From sequence record NZ_CP118102.1: 64,000 bases of DNA; one strand, given 5' to 3'. Below the pieces are notes generated by a model. It made no database searches and was not told the origin of the DNA. It saw only the letters and a list, made by a program, of their open reading frames with translations. The DNA comes from a plasmid. Made by a program: the position numbers and the translations under genes. The first letter of the stretch is position 1. Each line of letters opens with the position of its first letter. This document shows positions 10,294 through 63,760 of the stretch, piece after piece.

Positions 10294-11469
10294 ATGGTTG
10301 TTGTGGATAATAGAGAGAATGAAAATCTTGATGATTTGATAGGAGATTCTAGATACATTCCCTTTTTACATCGTACGAGGGAATCTAACACGTCTCTGAC
10401 TGTGAAATGGATAGTTAACTTCTTGGCAAGTGTAGTTCAAATGGTTAACATCCCTTTTTTCTTTTTCCTTCTTTTAATTGCAGTTGAACAAGTCGGCCAA
10501 CAATTAAACTCTTCATTCACTATACCTTACAAGATTTTTTTTGCTCTTGGTCTTTTAATATTATTAGTTCTTGGTGAATATTTAGTACAGAGGACTCGAA
10601 AGAACATGGTTAGTCCCAGTGTTAACCTAATATGGTTTATGAACTTTAAGGGGCCTCTAAACAACCACTTTTATTCAGCAGAAAAGTCCCAAGAGTATAG
10701 TGCAAGTTTAGGTGACTTTGTGAAATATCAAGCTGACGAGTACATAAGCCAAGGGATTAAAGAGACAGAGCACAAGCTGATTCGTATGACTGAAGTCGTG
10801 CAGCAACTGAGCAATTTAGGATCCTTCCCTAATGAGACATTTGAATCCTTGAAACGTGTTATTGATATGATTGGGGACATGATGCTGAACCCAGCGAGCC
10901 CGAGAAATTCTTACTATGTTGTTTTAGACCGTATTCTAGCTGAAATAGCAAGTACGAAACCGATACAGCCTTATATCAAGCAGGGATCGATTATGTTGCT
11001 AGACGATACTAGGCACTTATCAATAGCTGGTGGTTTCCATCTGCATAATAATTCTATTCAAAACCGTAAGATCCCGTATGGTGAAAAGTTTGCTGGTAAG
11101 GTTGTAGCCGGTGGCGATGTAATTTGGGTGGATGATGTAAATAATATAGAAGCTCAAGCGCTTTACGGTTTTAAGAGTGATCAAAATCGACCATACACAG
11201 GAATTATGGGATACCCTATGCGAGAGACTGGTTTAGATAGCTATCAGCCAGTTGGTGTAATTGTGCTGCATCTTTCAGAGGATATAAGCAAACTCTTAGA
11301 AGAGGAGAGAAAAGTAGTTTCCAAAACGCTTGAAGTCTATTCCCAAGCAATAATAACTACTATAAAACTTAATAAGTATTATATACAGAGAATGATTCAA
11401 TATGGTATAGTTGGTTTAGAAGAGATTACCACTAGTTTAGAAGGAGGCGACACGAATGATGACAATTAA
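10294..11469 (+). CDS. membrane protein with a C-terminal GAF-like domain
   Basis: Two hydrophobic segments (FLASVVQMVNIPFFFFLLLIAV; FFALGLLILLVLG). The C-terminal LLDDTRHLSIAGGFHL...GKVVAGGDVIWVDDV...VGVIVLHL is GAF-like. Confidence 0.45.
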   Translation: MVVVDNRENENLDDLIGDSRYIPFLHRTRESNTSLTVKWIVNFLASVVQMVNIPFFFFLLLIAVEQVGQQLNSSFTIPYKIFFALGLLILLVLGEYLVQRTRKNMVSPSVNLIWFMNFKGPLNNHFYSAEKSQEYSASLGDFVKYQADEYISQGIKETEHKLIRMTEVVQQLSNLGSFPNETFESLKRVIDMIGDMMLNPASPRNSYYVVLDRILAEIASTKPIQPYIKQGSIMLLDDTRHLSIAGGFHLHNNSIQNRKIPYGEKFAGKVVAGGDVIWVDDVNNIEAQALYGFKSDQNRPYTGIMGYPMRETGLDSYQPVGVIVLHLSEDISKLLEEERKVVSKTLEVYSQAIITTIKLNKYYIQRMIQYGIVGLEEITTSLEGGDTNDDN

Positions 11470-11894: not shown

Positions 11895-12056
11895 ATGCAA
11901 AATGGAAGAGTTATACCCTTCACTAAGGAGCCTAAAAGGGTGAGGTTCTTAACCCAGCAAGAGATCACGAGAGCAAATCAGACGAAGAGAGAAGATGTTT
12001 TGAGAAAGTTAGATGAGAAAGACAACAACGTAAAATATAATGAAAAAAAACACTAA
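11895..12056 (+). CDS. small basic hypothetical protein
   Basis: Short ORF; weak. Confidence 0.2.
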   Translation: MQNGRVIPFTKEPKRVRFLTQQEITRANQTKREDVLRKLDEKDNNVKYNEKKH

Positions 12057-12100
12057 AGGTGTACGGGAACGTACACTTTTTTTGTGTCTCCTTTTCGGCC
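12057..12100 (+). terminator. rho-independent terminator; copy 1 of a repeated ~45-bp hairpin/T-tract module
   Basis: GGTGTACGGGAACGTACAC followed by TTTTTTTT, then GTGTCTCCTTTT. Near-identical to the module at 17538-17595. Confidence 0.6.
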
Positions 12101-12469
12101 TAAATGTGTAATAAGTCGACGATTTGAACTGTTAGTAACGAGAGGAATTTCCATTGGAACTTTAGTAACTTATTGGAATTCATCTAAAAAAGTATTAAAA
12201 TAAATCTATTGTCCTAAGTGGCGAGATTAGAGATAACATTTTTTTAAAAAAACTACTTCATTTTACTCCATTTGAACTCCAGCTAATTTGAAAGTGCTAC
12301 TTTTGTCCTTAAATAAAGAACGCTATATTCTCGAAATATGAATCCGGAAAGTGCTAAATTACCATTACCAACTGATGATGTTACCGAAAATAAAAAAACA
12401 TAAACTAAGATAGTATTAAAATATCAAACTAGATATTACAAGCAGTCTACTCTACTAGGAGGTATTGTT

Positions 12470-13555
12470 TTGAAACTTATAAGTCTAGAGATAGAGAATT
12501 TTCGAAACTTTGGTGAAGTGAAAATAAGTTTAACAAATCAAAATGTTATTTTTGGGATGAATGATGTAGGAAAAACCAATTTCATGTTCGCATTAAGATT
12601 CTTGCTAGATAAAGAAATTAGAAAGAATGGCTTTATGATTTCCGATTACTATAAGAATAACATTGAGGAAATTATTAGGATTACATTAGGAGTAGACTTG
12701 TCAGATCGAGAAAATAATGATGATTCAAAACATATTATATCAAAAGTTGGCGGAGCTCGGTCTAGCGATGAATTAGATAAGTTTTATTTTCAAATTGAGG
12801 GTGTTTATGATAAGAGTGAAGAGATTGGAATACCGAAAATGTACTGGGGAAACAATCTAGAAAAACTCATAGAGATTGGTCATAATGGATATTTTAGTAT
12901 CATCGACAATTTATTCAAAGTTGTATATGTCGATCCTGTCATTGATTTAGAAAAAACTTTTTCGAAAAATCGAACTAGATTGTTTAATCAAGCAAAACTG
13001 GATGATTCGGATATAGAAATTTCAAATCAAATTAAGGAATTAGCTAATTTACTGAACACCAAAATAAGTAGTATGAGCTTAATTCAATCTTTTCAAACGA
13101 CTATTACTGAAGAATATAAAAAGTTGAAGAACGAGCATATAAACATTGAAATGAAGTCAGAATTATCTATAAGCGGGTATTTTAGCAATCTAATACCATA
13201 TATTAAAAGAGACAATGATGATAATATTTATCCAACTTCAGGTGATGGTAGAAAAAAAATATTAGCATATTCTATATTAAATCACTTAATACAGTTACAA
13301 GAAGGAAATAAAATAATAATTTATTTAATTGAAGAACCAGAAAATAGCCTACATAGATCTATGCAAATAGCACTCTCTAAGCAATTATTCAATTCAAAAG
13401 TATATAATTATTTTTTCTTATCAACACATTCATCGGAATTACTGTATGAAATGGATAATGCCTCTTTGATAAGGGTGTATTCGCAAAGTGGTACTCTTTG
13501 TGAATCTTATATTTATCATGTTGACGAGGAATATAAAAACGTAAAAAGGAACTAA
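12470..13555 (+). CDS. gajA: Gabija GajA, N-terminal fragment (OLD-family ABC/AAA ATPase domain). It is truncated by a frameshift.
   Basis: Walker A FGMNDVGKTNFMFAL within MKLISLEIENFRNFG. The ORF ends in an A-rich run (AAAAAC GTAAAAAGG). Confidence 0.7.
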   Translation: MKLISLEIENFRNFGEVKISLTNQNVIFGMNDVGKTNFMFALRFLLDKEIRKNGFMISDYYKNNIEEIIRITLGVDLSDRENNDDSKHIISKVGGARSSDELDKFYFQIEGVYDKSEEIGIPKMYWGNNLEKLIEIGHNGYFSIIDNLFKVVYVDPVIDLEKTFSKNRTRLFNQAKLDDSDIEISNQIKELANLLNTKISSMSLIQSFQTTITEEYKKLKNEHINIEMKSELSISGYFSNLIPYIKRDNDDNIYPTSGDGRKKILAYSILNHLIQLQEGNKIIIYLIEEPENSLHRSMQIALSKQLFNSKVYNYFFLSTHSSELLYEMDNASLIRVYSQSGTLCESYIYHVDEEYKNVKRN

Positions 13556-14244
13556 ATCGTTCTTTGGCAACAGCTTTATTTGCAGATAAAGTATTACTTG
13601 TAGAAGGACCCTCGGAGAAAGTGTTATTTGAAAAAATATTAGAGGAAGTACATCCTACTTATGAGTTAGATGGGGGATTTTTATTAGATGTTAGTGGAAT
13701 TAAGTTTAAGCCATACGTAGAGGTATTGCGTGGATTAAATATTACCGTTTTTGTTAAAACGGATAATGATCTAAAGTCTAAAAGAAATCAACCCAAGATA
13801 TTTGATTTAATAGGTATCCAGAGGTGCTTGAACCTTCTGGAGGCTACTGAAGAAGAGAAAGACCCCATAGAACCGATTGAAATTGATTACTACACAGAAA
13901 ACGAGGATGGAAAAAAAGTTTTTAAACAAAAAGGAAAAGACCAACTGATTAAAACGAAGAAACTCGAACTTTTCAAACAATATAAATCTGAAATTCAGTT
14001 AATGAAAGATAACGGTATATACCTATCAAAAATTGATTTAGAACATGACCTGTATGAAGCCATCGGTGGGACAATGGAGACAGCATTAGGTTCTGATCCG
14101 ATAAAATATCTACAGGATCATAAACTAATTAATATGATAGAACTAACAAATCATCTATCGAAAGATGATTGTATCAATATTATCAAACACCCCTTATTTG
14201 AAGCCTTAAGAAAGTTGGTGTCAGATGAGATCGAGATTGGTTGA
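13537..14244 (+). CDS. gajA: Gabija GajA, C-terminal fragment (Toprim nuclease domain). The +1 frame continues from the upstream ATPase ORF.
   Basis: Toprim motif KVLLVEGPSEKVLFE. The frame is open from 13537 and overlaps the end of the ATPase ORF. 361 + ~230 aa matches the ~580-aa GajA length. Confidence 0.65.
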   Translation, partial: KRKKELNRSLATALFADKVLLVEGPSEKVLFEKILEEVHPTYELDGGFLLDVSGIKFKPYVEVLRGLNITVFVKTDNDLKSKRNQPKIFDLIGIQRCLNLLEATEEEKDPIEPIEIDYYTENEDGKKVFKQKGKDQLIKTKKLELFKQYKSEIQLMKDNGIYLSKIDLEHDLYEAIGGTMETALGSDPIKYLQDHKLINMIELTNHLSKDDCINIIKHPLFEALRKLVSDEIEIG

Positions 14245-15754
14245 TCAGGAAGCTAGAGATAAAATACTAGAAGATGATAACAGTATTCTAGTATCGGCAA
14301 GCGCTGGTTCTGGTAAAACTACAATTATGGTACAGAAAATGGGCATAGAATTAAGTAAAATAACTGACCATAAAACAATTGCTGCTATTACTTTTACCGT
14401 TAAGGCAACAGAGGAAATAAAAAGGAAAGCTCAACAATCTATAAAGAAACCATTTGTAGTTATGACAAACGATTCATTTATCGAAAATGAAATAACAAGA
14501 CCATTTCTTAAAGATGCATTTGGATCTGAATACTCAGAGGATTATTCTGTTGAATATGGAAACAGATATAAGTTTACTGTTGCTTCAGAAGGTCTTATGC
14601 AAATCAAACAGAGAAAGATTTTGGGAACTTTTTTTGACAACAAAAAAAATTTTAAATTTAAACTTGCCCTTGCAATAATAAGTAAATCTGTAGCTGCACA
14701 GGAATATATTAAATCAAAATATGCAACTATTTTTATAGACGAATATCAAGATTCAGATCAAGATATGCATCGGTTTTTCATGTACTTAAAAAACGAGCTG
14801 AAAATAAAAATCTTTATAGTCGGAGATGCGAAACAGGCCATCTATATGTGGCGTGGAGCAATGAGTAATATCTTTGAACTCCTTAGCAAAGAAAGATTTA
14901 GTTGTTATGAGCTCGTGACAAACTTCAGATGTCATAAAGACATTGAAAACTACGCTAATATCTTTCATAACCCACAATACTTTAACATACAAAAAGATAC
15001 CGTTCATAATGTTATTCTGAAAAATTATCAATCTAGATATATTAATGAGTTCCCAGAGTCATTTACACAATTGATTGATGATGATTTTATTGATCTAAAT
15101 AAAGAAATAGCCATAATCTCAAATATTAATAGAGACGCAAAAAAAATCGCAGAGTTGTTAAATGAAAAAGGGTTCGATTTCGTTTTTGTTCCTAAAACTC
15201 CAATTGATGAAGGATTACCTAATGGATTTCTATTGAAAGAGTTGGCTATGTTTACTAAAAACACTGCTTATACAATTTATGATTTCATGGAAAAAGTAGG
15301 GGGTGAAGAACGAAGCCAGAGAAGAGTAGAGATAAATAAAATCATTGGTGACTTAAAGAACAAAGATAATTTAATTAAAAGTAAAATAGGAGAAATAATA
15401 AACAACCTAGGTGTTTTTTTAGGACTTTCGATTGGTATTGATGAGGTAACAAAGTTTTATGAAAGTGTAAGCGACCCACAGTTTGACATGGCCTTTCAAA
15501 TGAGGGATAAGAAACACAAAGTTATGACAGTATTTGGGTCAAAAGGGCTTGAATTTGATCAAGTAATTAGTTTCACTCGTTATTATGAAATCTATAACAA
15601 TACAAATATGCAAAATCATTATGTCTGTGTAACAAGAGCAAAGGAGAAATTTGTAATGTTTGTAGATGATGTAAATTATCATAAACATGTATTAAGCTCA
15701 GCAACGAAACACGGACTGACCAATGCAGAGAAGTTGTTTAAATACATCGAATAA
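14225..15754 (+). CDS. gajB: Gabija GajB, UvrD-like SF1 helicase
   Basis: Walker A SASAGSGKTT, motif II IFIDEYQDSDQD, motif VI VCVTRAKEKF. 509 aa. Overlaps the gajA end. Confidence 0.75.
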   Translation: MRSRLVDQEARDKILEDDNSILVSASAGSGKTTIMVQKMGIELSKITDHKTIAAITFTVKATEEIKRKAQQSIKKPFVVMTNDSFIENEITRPFLKDAFGSEYSEDYSVEYGNRYKFTVASEGLMQIKQRKILGTFFDNKKNFKFKLALAIISKSVAAQEYIKSKYATIFIDEYQDSDQDMHRFFMYLKNELKIKIFIVGDAKQAIYMWRGAMSNIFELLSKERFSCYELVTNFRCHKDIENYANIFHNPQYFNIQKDTVHNVILKNYQSRYINEFPESFTQLIDDDFIDLNKEIAIISNINRDAKKIAELLNEKGFDFVFVPKTPIDEGLPNGFLLKELAMFTKNTAYTIYDFMEKVGGEERSQRRVEINKIIGDLKNKDNLIKSKIGEIINNLGVFLGLSIGIDEVTKFYESVSDPQFDMAFQMRDKKHKVMTVFGSKGLEFDQVISFTRYYEIYNNTNMQNHYVCVTRAKEKFVMFVDDVNYHKHVLSSATKHGLTNAEKLFKYIE

Positions 15755-15977
15755 CACTTTAGTGAAACCACTTCTAATTTTATGACTCAAAAAAGAAAAA
15801 TCGTACAATGTGTTCCGATCAAGTCAAACCATAGAATTAACAGTCTGCATATATGTCCTGGATTATTTAATACAATGAATAGTTTTGATATTTAAGGAGT
15901 AGAGGTATCTTTACTCCACTTCTGCCTCTCGAACAAACAATATAGTAATGATCAGCATAGGAAAAGAGGATTGACGT

Positions 15978-17303
15978 ATGGACTTAGGTATGTACGAAAA
16001 AGATTTAATAAATATACGTTTGATTCTAGAACAAACTGAACAGATTGATCACCAAACTATAATTGAGAAATATAGAAATTACTCCCGTAAAGGTGCAATT
16101 ACATGTCCTTTTTGTGGAGAAAAATTAAAATTAAGGGCAGGAGAGATTAGAGATATACACTTCAGTCACCCAGTCGGCAAAACATGTATGAAAGCAAAAG
16201 CATACGATACATACCAAAGACAAACTTTTAGAGAAAATGAAAAACACTCCGTTATGAAGGAAATCATTTATACAGAACTTAAGGGACAAGAGCGATTTAA
16301 AAATGACCTTAAAGTTGAGTATGGTTACTTGGAAAAGGCAGAAGAAAAATGGAACATATATCCAGATATATATTTAAAGAAGGGAGATCGGGAGTTTGCG
16401 CTAAATATTATAACTAACATACAACAAATAGGAGATGAAAAAGTAGTAAATAATATTCACCGTAGAAATAGTTATTTTAAAAATAAAGGGTTAGAGATTA
16501 TATGGTTTATTGAAGAAAGAGAACTAGCAGATGATTTTGTTAATCGGGTGCTTCATCTATGGGAAGCAGAATATAATCTAGCTATGAAAACACGAGAGGA
16601 CCATATTTGGGATGAACATATTAGAGAACTTTCACTAAAATATCCCGAATATAAACTACCTGAAGTTTTCGGTTATAAATCTCAGAATGAAGCATTGCCG
16701 TTAGAGGTGCATAGTCTTTATTATATACGCTCCTTACAAGAGGGAATGGAGTTTACTGTACATCGCCTTATATTAGATAACAAAATAGCTCCTTTTCGAG
16801 CTTTTGCCTTAACAAAAAGCTACCCTTTGAAACTATCTTATGCCTTGAGCATCGACACAGAGATTTCTCTTAGTGATAAAGAACAAGAAAACTTAAATAG
16901 AAAGGAATTTGAAGAAGAGTTTATAGATAAAATCAATAATCAGATCACCAATGATAATTATGTCGGATATTCAGATTTATCAGAGTTTTCTTTCTCTTCT
17001 GTAAATTTTAATCCGTATGAACGTACAGTTATATCAGACGAAGCAACTCGTAAAATAATTCAAGAAGATGAATTAGAAAACAAAAGAGAATCACATAATC
17101 CGGATTACTACCTTAAACAAATTATAAATTTTACTATAACTGATGAAGAAGCAAGACATTTTTACGAAGGATTAGCAAGCCGACATGTAGATTTAGCTAC
17201 TCATAATTTACGATTAGATAATATTTGTAATGCTATAGAGTCTTTTAGTTCTTTTTGTAATAATGAAGCGAGAGTGTGGTTGGATAAGATCCTACGTTTG
17301 TAG
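15978..17303 (+). CDS. CoiA-like family protein (N-terminal CPxCG Zn-finger followed by HFSH, nuclease-family)
   Basis: ITCPFCGEKLKLRAGEIRDIHFSHPVGKTC matches the competence-protein CoiA N-terminal signature. 441 aa. Confidence 0.45.
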   Translation: MDLGMYEKDLINIRLILEQTEQIDHQTIIEKYRNYSRKGAITCPFCGEKLKLRAGEIRDIHFSHPVGKTCMKAKAYDTYQRQTFRENEKHSVMKEIIYTELKGQERFKNDLKVEYGYLEKAEEKWNIYPDIYLKKGDREFALNIITNIQQIGDEKVVNNIHRRNSYFKNKGLEIIWFIEERELADDFVNRVLHLWEAEYNLAMKTREDHIWDEHIRELSLKYPEYKLPEVFGYKSQNEALPLEVHSLYYIRSLQEGMEFTVHRLILDNKIAPFRAFALTKSYPLKLSYALSIDTEISLSDKEQENLNRKEFEEEFIDKINNQITNDNYVGYSDLSEFSFSSVNFNPYERTVISDEATRKIIQEDELENKRESHNPDYYLKQIINFTITDEEARHFYEGLASRHVDLATHNLRLDNICNAIESFSSFCNNEARVWLDKILRL

Positions 17304-17537
17304 CCTCGAACTTTTTGTGAGGCTACATTTACATCACTGTATTTTTTGGGCTAGGATCCATGCAAAAAGACGGAAAAGTATCAATATGTAATCGTTTCTA
17401 TTGCATCTTTACTTTCAGCTTTTCGTTACTATATAATTAGCATATTGTTTAGTAACATTCTTATTTTTCTTGCCGTCAATTTCGGCGAGAATAGGTCATG
17501 CAGCTTCTGCTGTTCTATAAACATTTGTACTTTTTAA

Positions 17538-17595
17538 GGAGACGCTAAAGTGTACGGGAGACGTACGCTTTTTTTGCGTCTCTTTTTTTGTGCAA
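17538..17595 (+). terminator. bidirectional terminator; copy 2 of the repeated ~45-bp module, with two alternative hairpins each followed by a T-run
   Basis: CTAAAGTGTACGGGAGACGTACGC followed by TTTTTTT, then GCGTCTC followed by TTTTTTT. Confidence 0.6.
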
Positions 17596-17851
17596 AAAAG
17601 GAGGAATGAAGATTATGATCTGTGCTGCTCCCACAACTGATCAGTTCTACTGGGTGTTTCGCGAATAATGAGTTAGAGCGATACATCGTGCTATCAGATG
17701 AGGAATTGGGAAGCTCTCATTCACTGCGCTGGGAGATGATAAACGAAGGATTCCATGTATTATGGGACTCTTCCCGTAGTCGTAAACAAGCAATCCGGTA
17801 TATGGAGCTTTACTATCCTATCCCGATTATAAAAAGTTTGAAGCCGTTCCT

Positions 17852-18292
17852 GTGCCAGTGACTTTTAGGGAAGCATGCGACTTTGTAAACAAGCATCATC
17901 CTGCCCCGCAGGGTATGAAGTTTGCACTCGGTCTCAGTAATGGAAGGGAATTAATTGGAGTCTTGATAGCCGGTCGGCCTGTGTCTCGCTTAAGAGATAA
18001 CGGAAAGACAATTGAAGTTACCCGCTTATGCGTCCACAGTGCTTATAAAAATGCATGCAGTAAGTTATATGCATCGGCTGCACGTATAGCAAAAAAGATG
18101 GGCTATCAAATGCTCATTACCTATACGTTGGAGGAGGAAGATGGAGGCTCACTTCGAGGGGTAGGATTTCAATTTATTGGAGTGACTCCAGGAGGAAGCT
18201 GGCATAGCAAATCCCGCAGCCGGCAAGACCGACATCCAATGGGACCAAAAAGGGCTTGGAGCCTGAATCTATCGTCGAGCCAGGAGGAATAA
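17852..18292 (+). CDS. hypothetical protein (146 aa), possibly a small GNAT-like fold
   Basis: ORF. The EVTRLCV ... LRGVGFQFIG pattern gives only weak support. Confidence 0.35.
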   Translation: MPVTFREACDFVNKHHPAPQGMKFALGLSNGRELIGVLIAGRPVSRLRDNGKTIEVTRLCVHSAYKNACSKLYASAARIAKKMGYQMLITYTLEEEDGGSLRGVGFQFIGVTPGGSWHSKSRSRQDRHPMGPKRAWSLNLSSSQEE

Positions 18293-21051: not shown

Positions 21052-21155
21052 TAAAGAGCAGCATTATAGCAGTATATTCTAAATGCTTTACACCCTCTGC
21101 ACAGGGAAACATTAATCCTCCCTGTGCAGAAGGGAGGAGCAGGAGGAATAACATA

Positions 21156-27300: not shown

Positions 27301-29237
27301 CTTGCAGTCACTACACTAAGTTCGTTATCTATATTTACAGTATCAAAATGAGTAATATATCCATTTTTATCAGTAATGGTATATCCTGTTGTTCCTTTGT
27401 TTTGATCCGTTACTTTTGTTAACGTTAGGTATTTACCTGGTGGAGAAATATACTTCTTTGTAGATTGGTCATATTTGAAATAATGAGATGTTCCATCAGG
27501 TTCTGTATAAAGAACATTCCCTGTTTTATAAGCATCATAGATGCTTTCGTACCCGTTATAAACCCATCCATATCCAAAAGGTGTTAATTCTACTGATTTA
27601 GAATTATATGTTCTACCAAATACTAGAGCAGTATCCCCCCGTGAATCTAGATTATAATCTGTATACTGAATAACGTTATTACCAGTGCCCAAGTTGACGT
27701 TGCTAGTTCCTTCTCCCAAACTAATGCCATCAAAAGTCCAATAATCTTCCAATCCTAGACGACTTGCTGAAGTGTAGGTCACACTAAGAAGAGGAGTATT
27801 TTTTGTGTTAGCGGTATCATCACCGGAAATAAATTTTTTATAGGTATTTGTGGTTTCAGATGAACTTTTGAGTAAAAAACCTAAATTCGAATCGGGATTA
27901 TTAATCCACTTTTCCATCATGTACGGTGTGAGAGACCACTTATAATTGACATCCAAAGATGTAAGAGTATCTACATATGCAGTAGAAACTTGGGAGGCAT
28001 TAAAATCTCCGCCTTGAGAATTCCACTGTGTCCCGGCATCAGAGTACATCCATGAAGCTGAATATTCTGTCCATGGTGTGCTTATTGAATGCAAGGTTAC
28101 ATTCATACCAGTGTCATTAGATACTGAAGCCAACCATAAATTTAAATCAGCTGTTAAAACATTTGCTCCTTGAGGAATTGAACTAGTATCAAATCTAATT
28201 AATGAACGAATAATATTATCTTGGGTAGCGTCTTTGTATAAACCTACCCCTAAGGTTGTTTCTGTTGGTGCTGTCTGTTTTGGGAATGCACTTCGAATGT
28301 TTGTATCAGAAAGTGCATATTGGGGCTGATATTTAACTATTGTAGGATCTAAAGTTACTGGATAGACCCTCTTGTCACTGAGCAACCATTCCTGATTGGG
28401 GATCAGGTCTATATACAACTGATTATTTTCAGATCTCAAATCGTACTTAATATCATATGATATAGCTTCTTCTGGTATAGTAGATATTTCTTCGTTCTCT
28501 TTGTATCCATTAGGTTTAAACGAATCATACATAATAGGTGCTTCAATATAATACTTTATATCACCTGACTCTTTATCTAATAAAAGGATTGAGCCATTCT
28601 CTCGTTGCTTGTATGTTAAATTACCTAAATCTAATGAGAAGGTATAGATAACCGGTGTTTCCAGGTTAGCAGGTTTATCTTTTAAAATTATCTCCTCTTT
28701 AATACGATCGTTACCCAAGGAATATTTTAGATCCGCATTCTCAAAAACTTCTGGATAGATTACAGTATTGTTGGAAACTTCCGCATCTATGGCAGTTTCT
28801 ATTTCGGAGTAAGTAGTATTAGTAACCAATTCCTCCTTCATTGGAGTTAAATTTATCTCATAGTTATTTTCTGAAATTTCAAGTAGGTTGTCTTCGGAAG
28901 TGTGTTGTTTATCTAGCTTTACATGAAAAGAGTGGGCGTTATTGTAAATAGATGTATTATTCTCTTTAAGAGTTGGTTTCCATTTCTCTATGTTTTCATC
29001 AAAGTAATGGATCGGTGTTGGAGAGATATCCGTTGTTAATGTACCATTGCTGTTTAGGTATGTTTTTGAATATTCACTTCGTTTTCCTATTAATTCCTGC
29101 CTTTCATTTTTGATATTTACGACATCAGATGTCTTGTTATCTTTAACTTCTGCTATCGCTTTTGGATTAATTGCTGTTGAGGTCAATAATGAACCTGCCA
29201 TTACAAGAATAATGGACTTTTGAAATAACCTATTCAT
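24366..29237 (-). CDS. WapA/Rhs-family YD-repeat polymorphic toxin (1623 aa). It has a signal peptide, a DNRLRE-like N-terminal domain, YD repeats, an Rhs core ending DHDGDNP, and a lysine-rich C-terminal toxin of unknown type.
   Basis: Signal MNRLFQKSIILVMAGSLLTSTAINPKAIA. The GNDRIKEEIILKDKP motif is a DNRLRE variant. Many YD repeats (YDxxGN...). Core motifs YYYHLNGHGDV, DYDAWGN, and PxxLVDHDGDNP replacing the usual DPxGL. The last ~140 aa are basic, with ANAHKHHL. Confidence 0.85.
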   Translation of the reverse strand: MNRLFQKSIILVMAGSLLTSTAINPKAIAEVKDNKTSDVVNIKNERQELIGKRSEYSKTYLNSNGTLTTDISPTPIHYFDENIEKWKPTLKENNTSIYNNAHSFHVKLDKQHTSEDNLLEISENNYEINLTPMKEELVTNTTYSEIETAIDAEVSNNTVIYPEVFENADLKYSLGNDRIKEEIILKDKPANLETPVIYTFSLDLGNLTYKQRENGSILLLDKESGDIKYYIEAPIMYDSFKPNGYKENEEISTIPEEAISYDIKYDLRSENNQLYIDLIPNQEWLLSDKRVYPVTLDPTIVKYQPQYALSDTNIRSAFPKQTAPTETTLGVGLYKDATQDNIIRSLIRFDTSSIPQGANVLTADLNLWLASVSNDTGMNVTLHSISTPWTEYSASWMYSDAGTQWNSQGGDFNASQVSTAYVDTLTSLDVNYKWSLTPYMMEKWINNPDSNLGFLLKSSSETTNTYKKFISGDDTANTKNTPLLSVTYTSASRLGLEDYWTFDGISLGEGTSNVNLGTGNNVIQYTDYNLDSRGDTALVFGRTYNSKSVELTPFGYGWVYNGYESIYDAYKTGNVLYTEPDGTSHYFKYDQSTKKYISPPGKYLTLTKVTDQNKGTTGYTITDKNGYITHFDTVNIDNELSVVTARISYEQDLYGNKLEYKYSTDGKLTGIVDATGRELVFTYTTSGLVDYAMLEGQKTDYNYDINKRLVSVDQYSTDGTYNRTKYGYSPEGYLTTVIDPNNRRTDFTYENEYVAKVQEPSTDVSGVDGLERPGKSYQFAGRTSYVADALGNVTEYHMDSNYTPTSIVYADGTEEQVEYDTNYNPEIFIDSTGKKYIQKYDSYGNVLEKTDEENRTTKYTYNSLNFVSTETDPSGNVITYAYNDKGKVDTITDSKGQVTKHTYDQYGNLKTVDKPDGSMDSYSYNAVGNEVLTTTDGNGNITISVTDKQGNELSKTDGKGNTSYYEYNQQNELVKVTDANKQVTTYDYDNNRNLLRTTYPNGSVEVNTYNGTGQILSSTDALGNTTNNKYDSNGNLIETKTPNGRIFTYVYNELNQLVATKENDNVLYSYTYDPNGNLETINDDEKVIKYTDSGSIDSEIDRGSSKKYLYFENGEVKSLTYSVNAIDSVINYNYDEFDRLTDLYFNNTKIISYGYDTADDLKNITLGNGATTKTEYDKAKNLTGYANYRSDGTAINEYNYTYDQNNLIKSVTASTGTVEYEYNNLSQLISETLTDGTKIEYSYDFTGNRDTKKVTKGSDVTTNELTFNKVNQISTFNGTAFEYDRNGNLVKDNQNVYVYNVFDQLTEIKDTDNVTIFSARYDNNGKRISTETKNKKRNYFYQDDKVIYETDESGNIVIEYIWDESDVPVAFIFEGQTYYYHLNGHGDVVSLTDNSGNIVASYDYDAWGNIISQSGELADVNPYRYAGYRYDDETGLYLLSARYYDPDLAVFLTMDSHSGDSASPINQNKYSYSDNNPVNLVDHDGDNPFSIIQVTFILVKIGVKYYLKKQAPKKLAKQATYTARRVSKSKSKNYNFRNMKFANAHKHHLNEFGAKKLSLGAYSTKANKFFKAKNGRNVLKKSRANGDRLYYNPKTNEFGVLDRKGHIRTYYKPKAGMKYWRNQ

Positions 29238-55874: not shown

Positions 55875-56516
55875 ATGAAATTTATGGAGTTTACTCATAA
55901 GGACATATATGTGAAGGTTCATTGCTCACTATTAGTGACAAAGTATGATTCAACTACTAAAAATAATTATCTCATTTATACGAATGTTATAGATATTGAT
56001 TCGCGTGTGCAGGCAGTTTTTGCTCAATTTCATCATGCCAAGAAAGCAGAAGATGTAACTTTTCGTTTCTATCATGCACCGCGTATTGGAGAGAAAGGGT
56101 ATGATCGATCCTCTTTTTATATTAAACCCTATGGAAAATACAAGCATCTCTCACAGCGCGAAGATGAGACGCTGGTTACCGGAATTGTTGCCAGTGAAAG
56201 AGTTTTATCGCGCCAGGACCAAGGTTATTGTATTTTTGCATGGGATGGCAATATACACGAAAGACTTTTCTGGGCAATCGATGCTTACTATGAGACGCCA
56301 ATGCTAGAAGAGTGGATCCCTTACTTATATCTTCGGCTATTCCAGGATGGTTATCTCGTTCAACTTGATGTATATGATTACACGGGAGACTATCAAAACC
56401 TGGTTGCTTTTGAGCTGCTCGCTGGAGAGGAAATATTGGATGAGTATATATCTTATGGACTCAGAACAGGGGCAATTCAACTGGTTGAGGATATAAATGG
56501 GGAGGCCGTTTCATGA
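55875..56516 (+). CDS. hypothetical protein (213 aa)
   Basis: The ORF sits between the MTase and the helicase; its stop overlaps the helicase start. Confidence 0.4.
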   Translation: MKFMEFTHKDIYVKVHCSLLVTKYDSTTKNNYLIYTNVIDIDSRVQAVFAQFHHAKKAEDVTFRFYHAPRIGEKGYDRSSFYIKPYGKYKHLSQREDETLVTGIVASERVLSRQDQGYCIFAWDGNIHERLFWAIDAYYETPMLEEWIPYLYLRLFQDGYLVQLDVYDYTGDYQNLVAFELLAGEEILDEYISYGLRTGAIQLVEDINGEAVS

Positions 56517-58777
56517 GTGAATCTTCAGAAATAAGCAATGTGGTGATTGAGGCAATTGACCCTGCTCTGGAAGAGAAAAAGGTTTCCTCTCTTTCCGATG
56601 TGGAATCTATTGGGGATTATTTAGGGTTATTTGGAGCAGACCTGATTAGACGTCTTAACGATGAATATGTACCAGTTCATCATCCAGGTCAAAATAAACC
56701 ACTCCAGTTGTTAGAGAACCTTAAGCGTCCATTATTTCAAGCACAAGCTCACGTCGTAACTGCATTAATTAAGGGGTTTCAGCGTCATCGTAATCTCTTA
56801 GTTATTGGTGAGCCTGGAACAGGGAAAACATCCGTCTCTATCTCAGTTTTTTATTCCCTAATCACAGAATTACTCCAGAAAAAATCTGGACGGGTTCTTT
56901 ATATGGTCCCAAATCATCTGATAAAGAAGACGAAGCGGGAATGGGGTATTCTGCTAGATAAGGATCTGTTTGAGGTTCACTTTCTATCAGACTATATTGA
57001 CGTTATCAAGCTCCGAGATAGCAGAAGATTGGAGACGAAACCTAAAAAAATTGAGGTTTACATCATTGCAAGGGATACTGCTAAACTAGGTTATATTTAC
57101 GAACCGGTTGCACATTGGTCGGACCGTACATATCAGCAGCAGTTTCAAAACAATGATGGGACAGTTCGAACTGTTGAAAAGGTTGCTTTTCGCGGATGGA
57201 GATGCCCCGATTGTGGTGGACAATTAATGAAAGAGAAAGAGGACAGTCTTGTACCGATGGAGTATGAGGACTTTTTTAATAAGCATGGAAAGCCTACGCG
57301 TAGAAAAACGAACTTGTACTGTTCTAATCAAGTACGCCTCTATAAAAATGTAGATCCCGACAAGGACGAGACCCGTATTTGTGGGTCAAGACTTTGGCAG
57401 GCGAAGAATTCGAAAAAATCATATATATCTGGTAAGCCGAAACCGGTTGCTGGGGTGGCGCCACGAAAAGTATCTCCTGCGGATTTGTTTAAGCGTTGGT
57501 TTAAAGGCAAATTTGACCTGGCCATCGGTGACGAATGCCATGAGTTAGCAGGAGGGAGCGCTCAAGCTCATGCTTTTCATGTATTTTTGAATTGTGCCAA
57601 ACGAGGGATCGCAATGACCGGAACTTTGTCCAATGGTTATGCTTCTTCCTTATTCGAATTGTTTTTCCGGATGTTTCCCTCTCGTCTGAAGCAGATGGGC
57701 TTTAATTGGGGAGACGTAGGAAAGTGGGTCGATTTGTACGGTGTACGGGAAAGGGTCACTAAAATACGTGATGACGGAGATTTGAACAGCTCTAGTAACG
57801 GGAAGTCGAAAAGGACAAGTGTTAAGGAGTTGCCGGCTGCCGCACCGCAGCTCTTCACGGACATACTCAGTGACGTTGCAGTTTTTATACAGATGGCTGA
57901 TATGTTCGAAGTCCTGCCGGAACTCAAAGAAGGACCGATGAGTGTTCCTCTTGAGGGTGAAAGAAGACTTATAAGCTGCAAAACCCAAATTGTTCGACGA
58001 CCAGGTAGAAAGAGAAAGATTGAAAAGAAAATGAGGTTACTTGCGCCGGATTGGTATCTCAGAAAAAATCTGACTGAAGTCGAAAATCGTCTGCGAGAAG
58101 CTGTGCAAAAAGAGCTCGCTGCAGGTGGCCAGTCGGTACTTCTAGGGAGCCTTGTGAATACACTTTTGAGTTATTCAGATGTCCCTTTCAATTTCGAAGG
58201 TGTCCTTCATCCGGATACAGGAGAATGCATAGTGTCGGATAGTTACCGGCTTAGTGAGCGCCTATTATATCCTAAGGAGCTTCAGATGATCAAGTTTGTC
58301 CGATCGCAGCTAAAGCTCGGGCGAAGGGTAGGCATTTATGCGACTTATACGGGGAAAATGGGTACTCTGCAGCGACTCTCTCAGTTACTTGAAGAAAGAG
58401 GGATAAAGACAGCCCTACTTGGAACAGAGGTAAAGGGACCAGATCGAGAAGAGTGGATTGCCGAAAGGGTAAGGGAAGGTGCTCAGGTAATACTGACGAA
58501 TCCAATCCTGGTCAGCACTGGCCTTGATTTATTGATGTTTCCTTCACTTTATTTCTATCAGACTGGGCACCGTCTGAATATTGTGCGGCAGGCATCAAGA
58601 CGGCATTGGCGGATAGGTCAGCCGAATAAATGTCTTACTGTTTACAACTCATATCAGGGGACAATGCAGGAGCTGGCCATTAATCTTATGGCAGCCAAAA
58701 TGAGCGCTGCCCAAGCCTTAGAAGGGGTACCGCCAACAAAACGCGGAAAACGTACGCTAAGCCCATTAATTGAGTAA
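56513..58777 (+). CDS. SF2 DExH/SNF2-like helicase with an inserted Cys4 zinc ribbon. Its native 3' end is replaced by a Tn3-family transposon end.
   Basis: Walker A GEPGTGKTS. Motif II AIGDECHELAG. Motif V VSTGLDL. Motif VI QASRRHWRIGQ. Zinc ribbon WRCPDCGG...YCSNQ...ICGS. The last 16 codons read through a 38-bp Tn3-type IR. Confidence 0.75.
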   Translation: MSESSEISNVVIEAIDPALEEKKVSSLSDVESIGDYLGLFGADLIRRLNDEYVPVHHPGQNKPLQLLENLKRPLFQAQAHVVTALIKGFQRHRNLLVIGEPGTGKTSVSISVFYSLITELLQKKSGRVLYMVPNHLIKKTKREWGILLDKDLFEVHFLSDYIDVIKLRDSRRLETKPKKIEVYIIARDTAKLGYIYEPVAHWSDRTYQQQFQNNDGTVRTVEKVAFRGWRCPDCGGQLMKEKEDSLVPMEYEDFFNKHGKPTRRKTNLYCSNQVRLYKNVDPDKDETRICGSRLWQAKNSKKSYISGKPKPVAGVAPRKVSPADLFKRWFKGKFDLAIGDECHELAGGSAQAHAFHVFLNCAKRGIAMTGTLSNGYASSLFELFFRMFPSRLKQMGFNWGDVGKWVDLYGVRERVTKIRDDGDLNSSSNGKSKRTSVKELPAAAPQLFTDILSDVAVFIQMADMFEVLPELKEGPMSVPLEGERRLISCKTQIVRRPGRKRKIEKKMRLLAPDWYLRKNLTEVENRLREAVQKELAAGGQSVLLGSLVNTLLSYSDVPFNFEGVLHPDTGECIVSDSYRLSERLLYPKELQMIKFVRSQLKLGRRVGIYATYTGKMGTLQRLSQLLEERGIKTALLGTEVKGPDREEWIAERVREGAQVILTNPILVSTGLDLLMFPSLYFYQTGHRLNIVRQASRRHWRIGQPNKCLTVYNSYQGTMQELAINLMAAKMSAAQALEGVPPTKRGKRTLSPLIE
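58724..58761 (+). mobile_element. 38-bp Tn3-family terminal inverted repeat (outer GGGG to inner TAAG), the left end of the downstream transposon
   Basis: GGGGTACCGCCAACAAAACGCGGAAAACGTACGCTAAG. Its length, the GGGG start and the ACGCTAAG end match Tn21/Tn1546-group IRs. Confidence 0.6.
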
Positions 58778-58839
58778 TAAGCCGGTTTTCCCCGTACGCT
58801 AAAGGGGTACCGGCTCCGAAATTCGCAACGTGTTAATTG

Positions 58840-61797
58840 TCAGTAGAGAGGTTTCTTTAATGGCCGTAACGACGTTAGAGTTGTTGCTTGTTTTAGATCA
58901 AACTTGTACTCCCCTAGAAAATTAATATGTTCCCATCCTAGAGGTGAGGTATGTTGCATTAGTTCTTCTTTAAACGTTCCTTGGGTCTTTTTATATTCTG
59001 TTGCATGAGACAAATAGACAGTATTCCATACGCTGATTGCATTAATCAAAATGTTCAAGGCGCTGGCTCGTTGGAGTTGATCTTGCAGTGCGCGCTCCCG
59101 TAACTCCCCGTGTTTACCGAAGAAAATCGCTCTGGCCAGTGCGTTCATAGCCTCACCTTTATTCAGCCCCCTATGAATCTTCCGGCGCAGGGCTTCGCTT
59201 GATATGTAATCCAGAATAAAGATTGTCTTTTCAATGCGCCCCATTTCACGTAGAGCGGTTGCTAAGCGATTCTGCCGCGAGTAGGAACCGATCTTCCCCA
59301 TGATAAGTGATGCAGATACTGTCCCTTCTCGAATAGAATGGGCTAGCCGCAGCACATCATCATAATTTTCCTGAATGACCTTCGTATTGATTTGACCACG
59401 CAGCAGTTTCTCCAGTTTTGGGAAATCAGTAGGCTTCCCGATGATGTAAAGCTTAGAATCAGAAAGATCTCGTAAGCGCGGCGCAAATCTGAATCCGAGT
59501 AGTTGAGTCAAACCAAAAACTTGATCTGTATATCCTGCAGTGTCCGTATAATGTTCTTCGATGGTCAAGTCAGTTTCATGATGAAGTAGTCCATCGATCA
59601 CATGAACAGCATCCCTAGCATTCGTGTTAATCACTTTAGAATAGAAGCTTGAAAATTGATCACTGACAAAACGATAAATGGTTGCGCCCTTGCCAGTTCC
59701 GTAGTGCGGATTAGCATCCGCATGAAGCGCAGCTACGCCAATCGGCACCCTCATTCCGTCTGACGAAGACGTGGTGCCATCGCCCCAATAGGAGGGCAAA
59801 GATAACTTGTGGTGGAAGTTGACGAGGACAGCTTGAGCTTTATTCATTGCATCCTCATATAGCCGCCATTGTGCCGTATTGGCCATTTGCCGGTATGAAA
59901 TATCCGGCGTGGCATCCCCCATCTTGGTCAATCCAATGTTCGTTCCCATCGCCATCAGTGTTGCCATGAGAATTAACGTTTCTTCTTCATTGGGAATCCG
60001 ATTTGTTGAAGCATGGATAAATTGTTCATGAAAACCAGTCCAATGCGCTACCTCCATTAAGACCTCAGTCAATTTAATACGTGGAAGTAGTTCGTACAAG
60101 GATGAGCTAAAATTTCTGGCATCCTCCGGAGTATCTTTCTCTAGGCGGCTAATGTGAAGTTTTCCTTGCTCAAAGTTAATACCTTCTAGATCCTCAATGT
60201 TATTCGAAACCCATTCTAAGCGCTGTATCAGAGATGCGGTACGTTCGGCTAGGTAATCGCTCGCAGTCATGCTAACTACCAATTTTGTTTCATCAGGCTG
60301 AATACGGCTCCATTCATCTTTGGAGACAAGATACTCATCAAAATCTTTATGCTGCCGGCTCCCGACAATGGACACATCACCGGAGCGAACATAATTACGC
60401 AGCTCAGTTATTACAGCCATTTCGTAATAATGACGGTTAATCGTTCCGTCATCATCGTAGACATGCTTTTGCCAACGATTTGTTACAAAATTTAAGGGTG
60501 CGTCTTTTGGTACTTTACGTTTACCAGTTTCATTAATGTCCCTTATAACATCAATAGCCTTCATAAGTGGCTCTGCGGATTTATTAGAACGGAATTCCAA
60601 CGTTTTCAGCAGTGTTGGTGTATATTTGCGCAGCGTGTAAAACTTCTTCTCCAGCAAATCCAAATAGTCGTAATCAATGGGACGGGCCAGTCGCTTTGCT
60701 TCCTCTACAGATGCGACGAGCTGATCCCAGGGCATTACCGTCTCCAACGCAATAAATGGGTCTATGCCTTCGTCCCTAGCTTTTATGAGTGCTGCGCCAA
60801 GATCAGCATAATGAACCACCTTTTCGTTAATCGATTTTCCATTTTGTTTTTGGATTTCTTCTTGAGCCTTACGGCCTTTGGAATGTAGCTGTAATATCTG
60901 ACGGTCGTGAATTTCAAATGCTTGATCCGTTAAATCTTGTGTTAGATCGAGTAAATAAGCAACTAAAGTAGCATATTTCTTGGGGTCATCGAAACGACGG
61001 AAGGACTGCGGTTCATACCTTGCCCCGATTTTGGAGAGCTGACGTAATCGGTTTGGATGAATTCCCTTTGTATCGATTTGAAGCTGGACTTTTCGTATAT
61101 ATTCAAGTTTTTCAATGATCTTAAGGAAAGCATCCGGGGAACAGGTGCCTGGTACTTCTCTTAGCCATGCCAGATACGTTTTGTTGCTCTCCGGCATTGG
61201 GGATAGGATGTTTTCAAGTTTATCGACCTGCTCCACTGATAAGGAAGAAATAAGCATTTTATATATTTTCTCCTCGGCCCGTTGCCTCACTTCCCACACA
61301 ACCCGTTCGATTGTAGTCATCCCAGGTATAATGATTTTCTGTTTTCGTAATTCATCAAGGGCTACACGGATTAAATACATGGAGTTACCATTTTCTAACG
61401 AAAAATTCAGCATGATATTGGATAAGAACCGATATTCACGAAGCGTGAAGTTCCGATACCCATAGGTTTGCCGAATCTCCTCCATATGTTCTCGTCTAGT
61501 CGGTTCCCGTTGGGCATAAAGGGGAAATACATCAGGTGCCACGCCAACCTGCTTGGCAATGTAGCTTATTACAGAATCCGGTATGTGTTTCAAATCAGAT
61601 AAAGACCATCCTGGATAACGCAGGATGGCCAATTGAACGGCAAAGCCTAATCGGTTATGATCACGGCGATGTTTATTGATGATATCGAGATCGTGTTGCG
61701 AAAATGTATAGTACGTACCTAAATCCCAATCGTCGTCTGAAGGGATTTGCATAAATTCTGCGCGCTGATCTAATGTTAATAATTCCTTTCCTCTCAA
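58840..61797 (-). CDS. tnpA: Tn3-family transposase TnpA
   Basis: 985 aa. The N-terminus MRGKELLTLDQRAEFMQIPSDD...FTLREYRFL is characteristic of Tn3-family TnpA. Confidence 0.85.
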   Translation of the reverse strand: MRGKELLTLDQRAEFMQIPSDDDWDLGTYYTFSQHDLDIINKHRRDHNRLGFAVQLAILRYPGWSLSDLKHIPDSVISYIAKQVGVAPDVFPLYAQREPTRREHMEEIRQTYGYRNFTLREYRFLSNIMLNFSLENGNSMYLIRVALDELRKQKIIIPGMTTIERVVWEVRQRAEEKIYKMLISSLSVEQVDKLENILSPMPESNKTYLAWLREVPGTCSPDAFLKIIEKLEYIRKVQLQIDTKGIHPNRLRQLSKIGARYEPQSFRRFDDPKKYATLVAYLLDLTQDLTDQAFEIHDRQILQLHSKGRKAQEEIQKQNGKSINEKVVHYADLGAALIKARDEGIDPFIALETVMPWDQLVASVEEAKRLARPIDYDYLDLLEKKFYTLRKYTPTLLKTLEFRSNKSAEPLMKAIDVIRDINETGKRKVPKDAPLNFVTNRWQKHVYDDDGTINRHYYEMAVITELRNYVRSGDVSIVGSRQHKDFDEYLVSKDEWSRIQPDETKLVVSMTASDYLAERTASLIQRLEWVSNNIEDLEGINFEQGKLHISRLEKDTPEDARNFSSSLYELLPRIKLTEVLMEVAHWTGFHEQFIHASTNRIPNEEETLILMATLMAMGTNIGLTKMGDATPDISYRQMANTAQWRLYEDAMNKAQAVLVNFHHKLSLPSYWGDGTTSSSDGMRVPIGVAALHADANPHYGTGKGATIYRFVSDQFSSFYSKVINTNARDAVHVIDGLLHHETDLTIEEHYTDTAGYTDQVFGLTQLLGFRFAPRLRDLSDSKLYIIGKPTDFPKLEKLLRGQINTKVIQENYDDVLRLAHSIREGTVSASLIMGKIGSYSRQNRLATALREMGRIEKTIFILDYISSEALRRKIHRGLNKGEAMNALARAIFFGKHGELRERALQDQLQRASALNILINAISVWNTVYLSHATEYKKTQGTFKEELMQHTSPLGWEHINFLGEYKFDLKQATTLTSLRPLKKPLY

Positions 61798-61846
61798 TGG
61801 TTACACACCTTTCACTAAAATCAGAAGTTCAGTCAATAGGAGATGT

Positions 61847-62428
61847 TCAGGTCACCTGAAGGCTTTGTGTAGTCTTATTCCGGTTTGTAAGTGTTTGATA
61901 GATTTTTGCTTTAGATACACCGGTTCGTTCTGTTATTTCCTTAATGGTGTACTTTTCACTATCGTAAAGTGTAAGAGCCATGTCAATTTTGTTTTTATCC
62001 ATTGGAGGACGACCGCCTTTCCTGCCTCTCGCACGTGCAGCCTGTAATCCAGCAATGGTTCGCTCTCGGATTGTCTCTGCTTCCATCTCCGCCAGTCCAG
62101 CCATGATAGCAAAGAAAAGTTTCCCAGCGGGCGTACTCGTATCAACACCAAGAGTAATGATCTGCAGTCCAATCCCTATTTCCTGAAGGCCATGCGATAA
62201 TTCGATTAGTTGCCGCGTGGTTCTTCCCAAACGATCCAGCTTCCAAATGACAAGCGTATCACCTGGTCTCAAATATTCTAGGCAACGGGTCAGCTCCACT
62301 CGATCACTTTTCTTCCCAGAAGCCTTCTCCTCAAATATTCGCTCGCAGCCAGCAGCTTTTAACGTGTCGATCTGTAGGTTCAGTGATTGATCAGCTGTCG
62401 AGACACGAGCATAACCAATTTTGGCCAC
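61847..62428 (-). CDS. tnpR: serine recombinase (resolvase) TnpR
   Basis: MAKIGYARVSTADQSLNLQIDTLKAAGCERIF, with catalytic Ser in VST and a C-terminal HTH. Confidence 0.85.
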   Translation of the reverse strand: MAKIGYARVSTADQSLNLQIDTLKAAGCERIFEEKASGKKSDRVELTRCLEYLRPGDTLVIWKLDRLGRTTRQLIELSHGLQEIGIGLQIITLGVDTSTPAGKLFFAIMAGLAEMEAETIRERTIAGLQAARARGRKGGRPPMDKNKIDMALTLYDSEKYTIKEITERTGVSKAKIYQTLTNRNKTTQSLQVT

Positions 62429-62693
62429 ATGAATATCTCCTTTTGTCTATTAAACATATATTTATGATAATTTATACACTTTGAATTTTATACGACTTAA
62501 TAGACAATAACAATGCTATTTCTTACTGTATTTTAAGCTATGCACAAAAAGTATACAAAACGATCGTTTTTTAGACCCGACAATAGATACAACAAGCTGA
62601 TATATAATAAAACGCAGGACGCGGCGGTGAAGTAGCTTTTGTGATTCAACTAGATGGTAGCATATTCAACTTCTTGAAGGGAAATAATGTTCC

Positions 62694-62725
62694 TTGACCA
62701 TGTACCATGGTACATGGTCTATACT
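62694..62725 (+). promoter_or_regulatory. mer operator/promoter. The -35 is TTGACC and the -10 is TATACT, with a 20-bp spacer holding a perfect 22-bp palindrome.
   Basis: TTGACCATGTACCATGGTACATGGTCTATACT. The palindrome is ACCATGTACCATGGTACATGGT. The long spacer is the MerR hallmark. Confidence 0.75.
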
Positions 62726-62744
62726 TTATTTAGAGGTGATGAAA

Positions 62745-63170
62745 ATGAATTATCGCTCCGGAGATATTTCTAAATTGTGTAACGTTAACAAAGAAACATT
62801 AAGATATTACGAACGAAAAGGTCTGATTCATGAACCAGTAAGATCGGATGCTGGCTACAGGCTTTATCCGGAAGAAACGATAAACCGAATCATGTTCATT
62901 AAACGCATACAGGAGCTTGGTTTTACATTGTCTGAAATTGATAAATTGCTTGGTGTTGTTGATAAAGACGATGTGAGATGTGCGGGTATGAATGATTTCG
63001 TTGTTCAAAAGCTGGAAGATGTTCAGTCGAAAATTAGAGACTTTCAACGAATCGAAACGATGCTAAAAGATTTAAAAGACCGCTGTCCAGATGAAAAAGC
63101 GATACACGAATGCCCAATCATCGAAGCGCTCATTGACAATAATCAAAAGGAAAAGGAGGAAGTCCAATGA
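62745..63170 (+). CDS. merR: MerR-family mercuric-resistance regulator (Gram-positive MerR1-like)
   Basis: HTH ISKLCNVNKETLRYYERKGLI. A C-terminal Cys is present in RCAGMNDF and DRCPDEKAIHECPII. Closely resembles Bacillus RC607 MerR1. Confidence 0.8.
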   Translation: MNYRSGDISKLCNVNKETLRYYERKGLIHEPVRSDAGYRLYPEETINRIMFIKRIQELGFTLSEIDKLLGVVDKDDVRCAGMNDFVVQKLEDVQSKIRDFQRIETMLKDLKDRCPDEKAIHECPIIEALIDNNQKEKEEVQ

Positions 63171-63418
63171 AAGAAAATGCAAAAAAAATAGGTTGGGGCT
63201 TTTTAGCTCTGCTTTCCTGTCCTTGCCATCTTGTTTTGATTCTCCCTTTACTTGCGGGAACTACATTTGGAGCGTATTTTGCTCTCCATCAAACAGCCGT
63301 CAGTGTTATTTTAGGAATCGTATTTGTAATTTCTCTTGTCATGATGTTTAAACGAGCCAGCAAACAAGCAAAAACCGATGAATCACACGATTGCTGCTCA
63401 GTTCCGGAGCGAAAATGA
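63167..63418 (+). CDS. small mercury-transport-like membrane protein (MerE/MerT-like)
   Basis: First TM with a CPC motif (LLSCPCHLVLIL). C-terminal HDCC. Confidence 0.5.
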   Translation: MKENAKKIGWGFLALLSCPCHLVLILPLLAGTTFGAYFALHQTAVSVILGIVFVISLVMMFKRASKQAKTDESHDCCSVPERK

Positions 63419-63423
63419 GGTGA

Positions 63424-63735: not shown

Positions 63736-63760
63736 GAAAGAGGTGTGTTACGTGAGAGCA

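Follow-up and report, generated by a model that had tools for sequence, protein, structure and literature searches.

Probable recent loss of one adenine splits gajA in the Gabija operon of a Paenibacillus urinalis plasmid

We analyzed a 64,000-nucleotide (nt) stretch of the sequence record NZ_CP118102.1 (hereafter, the window), which derives from a large Paenibacillus urinalis plasmid (227,239-bp record, on which the proteins WDH85425.1 and WDH85426.1 are annotated). The window harbors a two-gene operon of the anti-phage system Gabija, whose first gene, gajA, is distributed over two reading frames at a run of five adenines (A5) that counts six (A6) in near-identical plasmids. The original prediction, made from the letters alone, had described a Gabija system whose gajA is broken by a frameshift within a poly-A stretch, and both the assignment and the nature of the split stood up to our analysis, as the intact allele aligns with the structure-solved GajA (E 7e-186) and the sister alignment revealed a change from A6 to A5. 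It had also offered a sequencing error, a recent inactivating mutation on the plasmid, and a slippery site as alternative causes. The second of these is the best supported, given the recurrence of A5 in two read-set assemblies and its restriction to one lineage as opposed to at least 24 contigs with an intact gene. The break in gajA is thus probably a real and recent inactivating mutation in a single lineage. The locus represents a frameshifted allele of canonical Gabija and the ordinary decay of a known defense gene; GenBank already lists the allele as two coding sequences, and RefSeq holds the intact protein as a MULTISPECIES entry.

Profile searches with the products of the two gajA open reading frames (ORFs) revealed that both belong to one gene. 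The upstream frame (12470-13555, ORF1) encodes the ATPase part, and the Toprim part is encoded by a different, overlapping frame opening at 13537 (ORF2), in full agreement with the earlier description. On the PADLOC GajA profile PDLC00081 (574 positions), ORF1 covers positions 1-360 (E 1.7e-160) and ORF2 positions 366-573 (E 5.6e-71), and this successive coverage of a single profile identifies them as two halves of one gene and not chance ORFs. Added together, they amount to 361 + 226 = 587 amino acids (aa), close to the 591 aa of the intact protein and to the ~585 aa initially estimated. Pfam assigned AAA_15/DUF2813 to ORF1, OLD-like_TOPRIM to ORF2, and UvrD-helicase to the gajB product, which also matched PADLOC PDLC00122 (E 1.3e-182). 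The latter gene was correctly predicted to be intact and to overlap the end of gajA; the overlap with the gajA stop is 20 nt for the 509-aa protein read from ATG, or 8 nt for the 505-aa protein that RefSeq starts at TTG 14237.

Comparison with the structurally characterized system of Bacillus cereus VD045 (GajAB complexes PDB 8sm3, 8j4t, 8tk0, 8jq9, and others) led to the same assignment. Residues 1-586 of the intact gajA product aligned with the B. cereus chain, and GajB of the window matched its PDB counterpart with E 5e-115. The GajA alignment is gap-free up to residue 459, so that the B. cereus numbering carries over. Mutagenesis has identified K35, H320, E379, D511, and K541 as residues important in GajA (PMC8136825), and all five are conserved in the alignment, K35 and H320 in ORF1 and E379, D511, and K541 in ORF2. 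As in Gabija at large, an OLD-family ABC ATPase-like domain precedes a Toprim domain, and a UvrD-like gajB lies immediately downstream in the same orientation. Gene order and the overlap between the gajA end and the gajB start are shared with the VD045 system, and the closest homologues include ~585-aa proteins of the B. cereus group with ~72% identity. The window system differs from that of VD045 in residing on a P. urinalis plasmid and in that its gajA, broken at codon 359/360, encodes no single GajA. Indeed, the only Gabija hallmark absent from the window is GajA as one ~580-aa polypeptide, which, because of the 1-nt deletion, is replaced by 361 aa and 226 aa in different frames. Collectively, sequence, conserved residues, and gene order define the window operon as a canonical-type Gabija (gajA-gajB).

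The exact lesion was evident from sister plasmids. Megablast against plasmids retrieved two near-identical P. urinalis plasmids from human blood isolates, namely NZ_CP118110.1 (strain 2022CK-00829) and NZ_CP118105.1 (strain 2022CK-00833), hereafter CP118110 and CP118105. In CP118110, gajA is uninterrupted (1,776 nt), its 591-aa product is WP_205055012.1, and the gene differs from that of the window at one place only, reading GTAAAAAAGG (A6) instead of GTAAAAAGG (A5). Alignment to an intact GajA, which had been recommended for placing the indel, located it, with the sister plasmid as reference, in an A6 run that has lost one A. In a 9.4-kb comparison round the operon, the missing A was the sole difference between CP118110 and the window, the flanks being identical, and gajB was identical in all three plasmids. 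A three-way alignment over the 58.7 kb in common further placed A6 at the lesion site in both sisters. Loss of one A shifts the downstream part to the -1 frame, which is exactly the arrangement seen, and interrupts the protein at residue 359/360, within the linker that joins the ATPase and Toprim domains. The position of the junction in the original prediction thus needs a small correction: the frameshift does lie in an A-run, but the AAAAAC run singled out there is unchanged, and the lesion is the neighboring A5 run (13543-13547).

Translation of the 5' ORF begins at TTG and yields 361 aa ending in EEYKNVKRN (HVDEEYKNVKRN) before a TAA codon at 13553-13555. The -1 frame opens at 13537 with KRKKELNRSLATALFADKVLLVEGPSEK and runs to a stop at 14242-14244, giving 226 aa when counted from TTG 13564, 8 nt beyond the 5' ORF stop. 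Both frames overlap at 13537-13555, inside TATAAAAACGTAAAAAGGAACTAA.

Homologues and further assemblies evidenced that A5 is, on sequence comparison, the derived state and private to one lineage. The two PLSDB plasmids and another six assemblies have A6, and the contigs that encode the intact 591-aa GajA, from many samples, number at least 24. Single proteins of 560-603 aa account for 114 of the best 120 homologues listed; the other six measure 361-543 aa, count the window's own 361-aa fragment among them, and include none with a conserved split. Hence, separately encoded homologues of the two halves, the observation that had been named as speaking against a split gene, were not encountered in this clade. 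Six relatives, the intact P. urinalis allele counted, carry an A5-A7 run at the lesion site, where it encodes the conserved Lys-Lys of a VKKELN motif, and reading continues in frame through it in each of them. For this comparison four gajA homologues were sampled individually, and scanning species-representative contigs with one protein as the query brought up two loci in total, one of them irrelevant. It is this combination of A6 in sisters and other assemblies, intact contigs, single-protein homologues, and in-frame relatives that identifies A5 as derived.

We also examined whether A5 recurs in independent data. The exact 361-aa and 226-aa products were present in the NCBI record and in what Logan assembled from two separate runs. 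One contig, of 90.7 kb and from SRR23080378, equals the window at 21,086 of 21,086 positions, window-specific single-nucleotide polymorphisms (SNPs) included, whereas the SRR23401455 contig shows A5 together with a shortening of T8 to T7 at window position 10535, a run that is correct in SRR23080378. The latter contig probably represents noisier data or another isolate. The T8 run lies within the gene of a GAF-domain protein (10294-11469), and T7 truncates the gene call in SRR23401455. Because A5 recurs in assemblies of two independent read sets, one of which agrees fully with the window, an assembly error is unlikely. Moreover, the private differences of the window over the 58.7 kb comprise 12 SNPs, a 9-nt in-frame deletion, and a TA-repeat change, to which a Tn3-family insertion is added; these mark a lineage that has truly diverged and not a poorly polished copy.

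These data bear directly on the sequencing error put forward in the original prediction, according to which the strain would truly carry A6 and an intact gajA, a homopolymer miscall having passed into the deposited record. A 1-nt change in homopolymer length is indeed the classic long-read error, and noisy assemblies of this locus exist, as illustrated by a Logan contig from another sample with gajA broken at its A8 run and gajB broken as well, and by the additional T8-to-T7 change in SRR23401455. However, A5 was reproduced by two read sets under a different assembly pipeline, the window shows no error in two longer runs of gajA, A8 and A7, and its only other private difference in homopolymer length over 58.7 kb is a C7 run at 50700, which is C6 in both sisters. 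We therefore hold a miscall to be quite improbable.

The sister record CP118105 offers what such an error may look like. Its gajA is split at another place, where A6 has become A7 at the window-equivalent positions 13631-13636, 88 nt downstream of the lesion and after the catalytic E379. The private differences of CP118105 over the 58.7 kb consist of three 1-nt insertions only (window-equivalent 13631-13636, 31070, and 42673), with no private SNPs, a pattern resembling consensus error. Each insertion breaks a gene, namely gajA, a PAPS-reductase-family gene, and a DnaA-N/HTH (helix-turn-helix) gene. Exact look-ups found the three broken products only in the NCBI record of CP118105, a result that a lack of the corresponding reads in Logan would equally produce. 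Their occurrence in one record only suggests that these insertions are consensus errors of the assembly rather than biology.

We next considered what a genuine A5 allele would mean for the defense system. GajA assembles with GajB into the defense complex, and Gabija needs GajA as one polypeptide. Cheng et al. delimited GajA's ATPase-like domain at residues 1-341 and the Toprim domain at 370-510, and reported that a Toprim-only fragment of the B. cereus protein (348-578) has no endonuclease activity in vitro, the ATPase-like domain being indispensable for the Toprim nuclease activity (PMC8136825). After a recent loss of one A from the A6 run in the window lineage, translation from the strong gajA start would stop at the TAA described above and release a 361-aa, ATPase-only protein. 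The Toprim half would be made only via weak reinitiation at TTG 13564 or rare slippage, and the predicted outcome is an ATPase fragment, little or no Toprim fragment, an inactive Gabija, and an orphan gajB. By analogy with the B. cereus protein, loss or severe attenuation of Gabija defense in the window strain would be most likely, since its Toprim-only fragment is inactive and its ATPase-like domain indispensable.

Several points weigh against a real and inactivating mutation. Support for A5 comes from assembled contigs, and the T8-to-T7 change indicates that SRR23401455 may consist of noisy long-read data prone to homopolymer deletions. As to its consequence, loss of function is deduced from the biochemistry of the B. 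cereus protein, and ORF2 and gajB have suffered no further damage, which fits a very recent event and fits retained function equally well. Natural relatives such as PARIS, with AriA and AriB, work as separate ATPase and Toprim proteins.

Retained or attenuated function could come about in two ways, either by low-level -1 slippage at A_AAA_AGG (13543-13549) or by association in trans of the two halves, the Toprim part being reinitiated at TTG 13564, and both would result in low-dose Gabija. Computed translation indicated that a -1 slip after the Lys codon at 13544-13546 yields a protein identical to that of the intact 591-aa allele. A Shine-Dalgarno (SD)-like GAGGA (13526-13530) sits 12 nt upstream of the A-run, and in dnaX an SD-like element at such spacing stimulates -1 shifting. 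Being situated precisely in the linker between the domains, the break leaves ORF2 with the entire Toprim domain, including E379, D511, and K541, and the 8 nt between the stop and the TTG would allow reinitiation. Furthermore, ORF1 also matches the stand-alone ATPases AriA and mad3, and ORF2 matches mad4, so that separate architectures exist in nature.

Other observations argue against retained function. A_AAA_AGG departs from the canonical heptamer X_XXY_YYZ, since AGG in the ribosomal A-site cannot re-pair with AAG, although the Lys codon in the P-site can. With 12% of Arg codons on the plasmid, AGG is not rare, and no stimulatory RNA structure was evident downstream, the segment 13550-13640 folding at -14.2 kcal/mol (z = -0.23 versus shuffles). 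The intact allele carries GAGGA as well, so the element was not selected for recoding. A conserved split was found in none of the relatives, whether among the best 120 homologues listed or in the six compared at the site. The ribosome-binding site of ORF2 is poor, with a weak SD-like AAGGA ~13 nt upstream of TTG 13564, as opposed to AGGAGG at optimal spacing in front of gajA, and the Toprim-only fragment is inactive in vitro (PMC8136825). The slippery site of the original prediction is therefore physically possible and would restore the wild-type protein, but stimulatory or evolutionary evidence did not emerge for it. Leakiness above background is unsupported, and assembly of the halves in trans, for which the separate proteins of PARIS and AbiL would set a precedent, is favored by nothing in our analysis. 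Altogether, we consider retained function unlikely.

Two known arrangements resemble the locus closely enough to be weighed as evolved features. Programmed -1 frameshifting, as in Escherichia coli dnaX (A_AAA_AAG) and insertion sequence transposases, shares with the window an A-run where the frames meet, an SD-like element upstream (GAGGA at 12 nt in the window), and slippage into a full-length product; in contrast to those systems, the window has a non-canonical heptamer without a downstream stem-loop, its split is unconserved, and relatives are single-frame. Recoding as an evolved feature was rejected on these grounds and on the commonness of AGG. In PARIS (AriA ATPase plus AriB Toprim) and AbiLi/AbiLii, the same pair of domains is distributed over two adjacent genes. 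Secondary matches of ORF1 include AriA (E 8e-19) and AbiLi, and ORF2 matches only GajA, Old, and mad4 models. Unlike in PARIS and AbiL, however, the window ORFs match GajA best, with a margin of more than 140 orders of magnitude, a UvrD-like GajB that is absent from PARIS follows, and the split stems from a 1-nt lesion in a gajA that is otherwise intact and not from an architecture evolved as two genes. An evolved two-gene OLD-like system was rejected in view of the E-values of ORF1 (8e-19 for AriA versus 1.7e-160 for GajA) and the 1-nt difference from the intact allele.

The window and CP118105, which otherwise differ at only a handful of sites, each carry their own 1-nt homopolymer frameshift in gajA, at a distance of 88 nt from one another. 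This could also be read as recurrent or reversible switching, in which mutation of the A-runs would turn gajA on and off, selection for this would come from the cost of Gabija, and independent off alleles would keep arising in this plasmid family. Classic contingency-locus homopolymer tracts measure ~8 nt or more, and the six-nt runs of gajA are shorter than these. Of all homopolymers reaching at least 5-6 nt in the 58.7 kb common to the plasmids, ~5% fall within gajA, and the probability that one of CP118105's three private indels hits gajA a second time by chance is ~0.1-0.14, which is not significant. The A7 allele is known from one unverified record, whose other two private indels are also gene-breaking and absent from the read-set assemblies, and the A5 off allele from one lineage (three assemblies). 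Relatives with A7 at the lesion site are intact, and mixed alleles within a sample were not apparent in the assembly-level data. In favor of a cost, a 2025 preprint describes that Gabija turns toxic to the host when RecBCD is impaired (PMC12407980), which makes a fitness cost plausible. On balance, we regard such switching as very improbable. An extended version would cast the A-runs flanking the linker as a mutational dimmer, whereby +1 and -1 changes repeatedly silence a costly Gabija, e.g. in a host with compromised RecBCD/AddAB, A5 leaks some GajA through the A_AAA_AGG slip with the help of GAGGA, and a single A reverts the allele; this is a speculation to which we attach hardly any credence.

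The features of the operon are compiled in the table. A non-coding leader of ~390 nt separates gajA from the terminator-like hairpin that bounds the unit upstream. A search of the whole window, leader included, for non-coding RNAs and riboswitches at the Rfam gathering threshold returned no match. A promoter scan yielded 19 sites where 21.8 are expected by chance, and is therefore uninformative. Megablast against a phage collection gave no match, and a phage origin was rejected on this basis.

Table. Coordinates of the Gabija operon and associated elements in the window
Feature	Position	Strand	Description
Terminator-like hairpin + T-run	12055..12080	+	11-bp stem, T tail; upstream boundary of the Gabija unit
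Shine-Dalgarno AGGAGG	12457..12462	+	7 nt upstream of the gajA TTG; read from sequence
gajA, frameshifted	12470..14244	+	591 aa encoded if A5 were A6
gajA 5' ORF	12470..13555	+	ABC/OLD-type ATPase-like domain; residues 1-359 plus RN + stop; GenBank WDH85425.1
gajA 3' frame	13537..14244	+	Toprim nuclease domain; first start TTG 13564; GenBank WDH85426.1
Lesion, A5 run	13543..13547	+	1-nt deletion; shifts the frame by -1 at codon 359/360
Second A6 run in gajA	13631..13636	+	Intact in the window; A7 in CP118105
gajB, UvrD-like superfamily 1 (SF1) helicase	14225..15754	+	Intact; start overlaps the gajA end

The operon lies in a stretch of low GC content (window 12000-18000) that, judged by its composition, marks a horizontally acquired island, since gajA and gajB have ~30-31% GC and the flanks ~41%. 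The mean of the shared region is 38.6%. Next to gajB on its downstream side, this island contains a 441-aa ORF of the same orientation (15978-17303; ~35% GC), which encodes a CoiA N-terminal zinc-ribbon-like domain, as deduced from a weak Pfam match (E 1.5e-6), and none of the PADLOC models matched this ORF. The neighborhood further comprises genes for RadC, a DUF6573 protein, a GAF protein, Dam and Dcm methyltransferases, and a polymorphic toxin, as well as plasmid replication genes.

Elsewhere in the window, differences from the sisters are densest in a large minus-strand gene of 4.9 kb for a surface-protein-like DNRLRE-domain protein, which accumulates five SNPs within ~1.1 kb (27950-29057) and harbors the private 9-nt in-frame deletion at 28970. 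At 58726-64000, the window leaves both sisters inside a DEAD/DEAH-box helicase gene, whose product is 754 aa long in the window (56513-58777) versus 941 aa in CP118110. A Tn3-family transposase ORF follows on the minus strand (58840-61797), with ~74% nucleotide identity to a copy on a Bacillus pseudomycoides plasmid. The helicase thus looks to have been truncated by a transposon insertion in the window lineage only.

The significance of these findings beyond annotation is small. WDH85425.1 and WDH85426.1 are to be read as one frameshifted gajA, and defense-system finders will call the plasmid Gabija-positive though the system is probably dead. The locus provides a small, clean example of the fast decay of plasmid-borne defense genes, in which a single nucleotide separates intact from broken Gabija in near-identical clinical isolates. 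The strains form a pair for an isogenic Gabija-on/Gabija-off comparison of the costs and benefits of this system in Paenibacillus. Should the frameshift in CP118105 be borne out by reads, a gajA inactivated more than once would be a hint that bearing Gabija on the plasmid lowers fitness.

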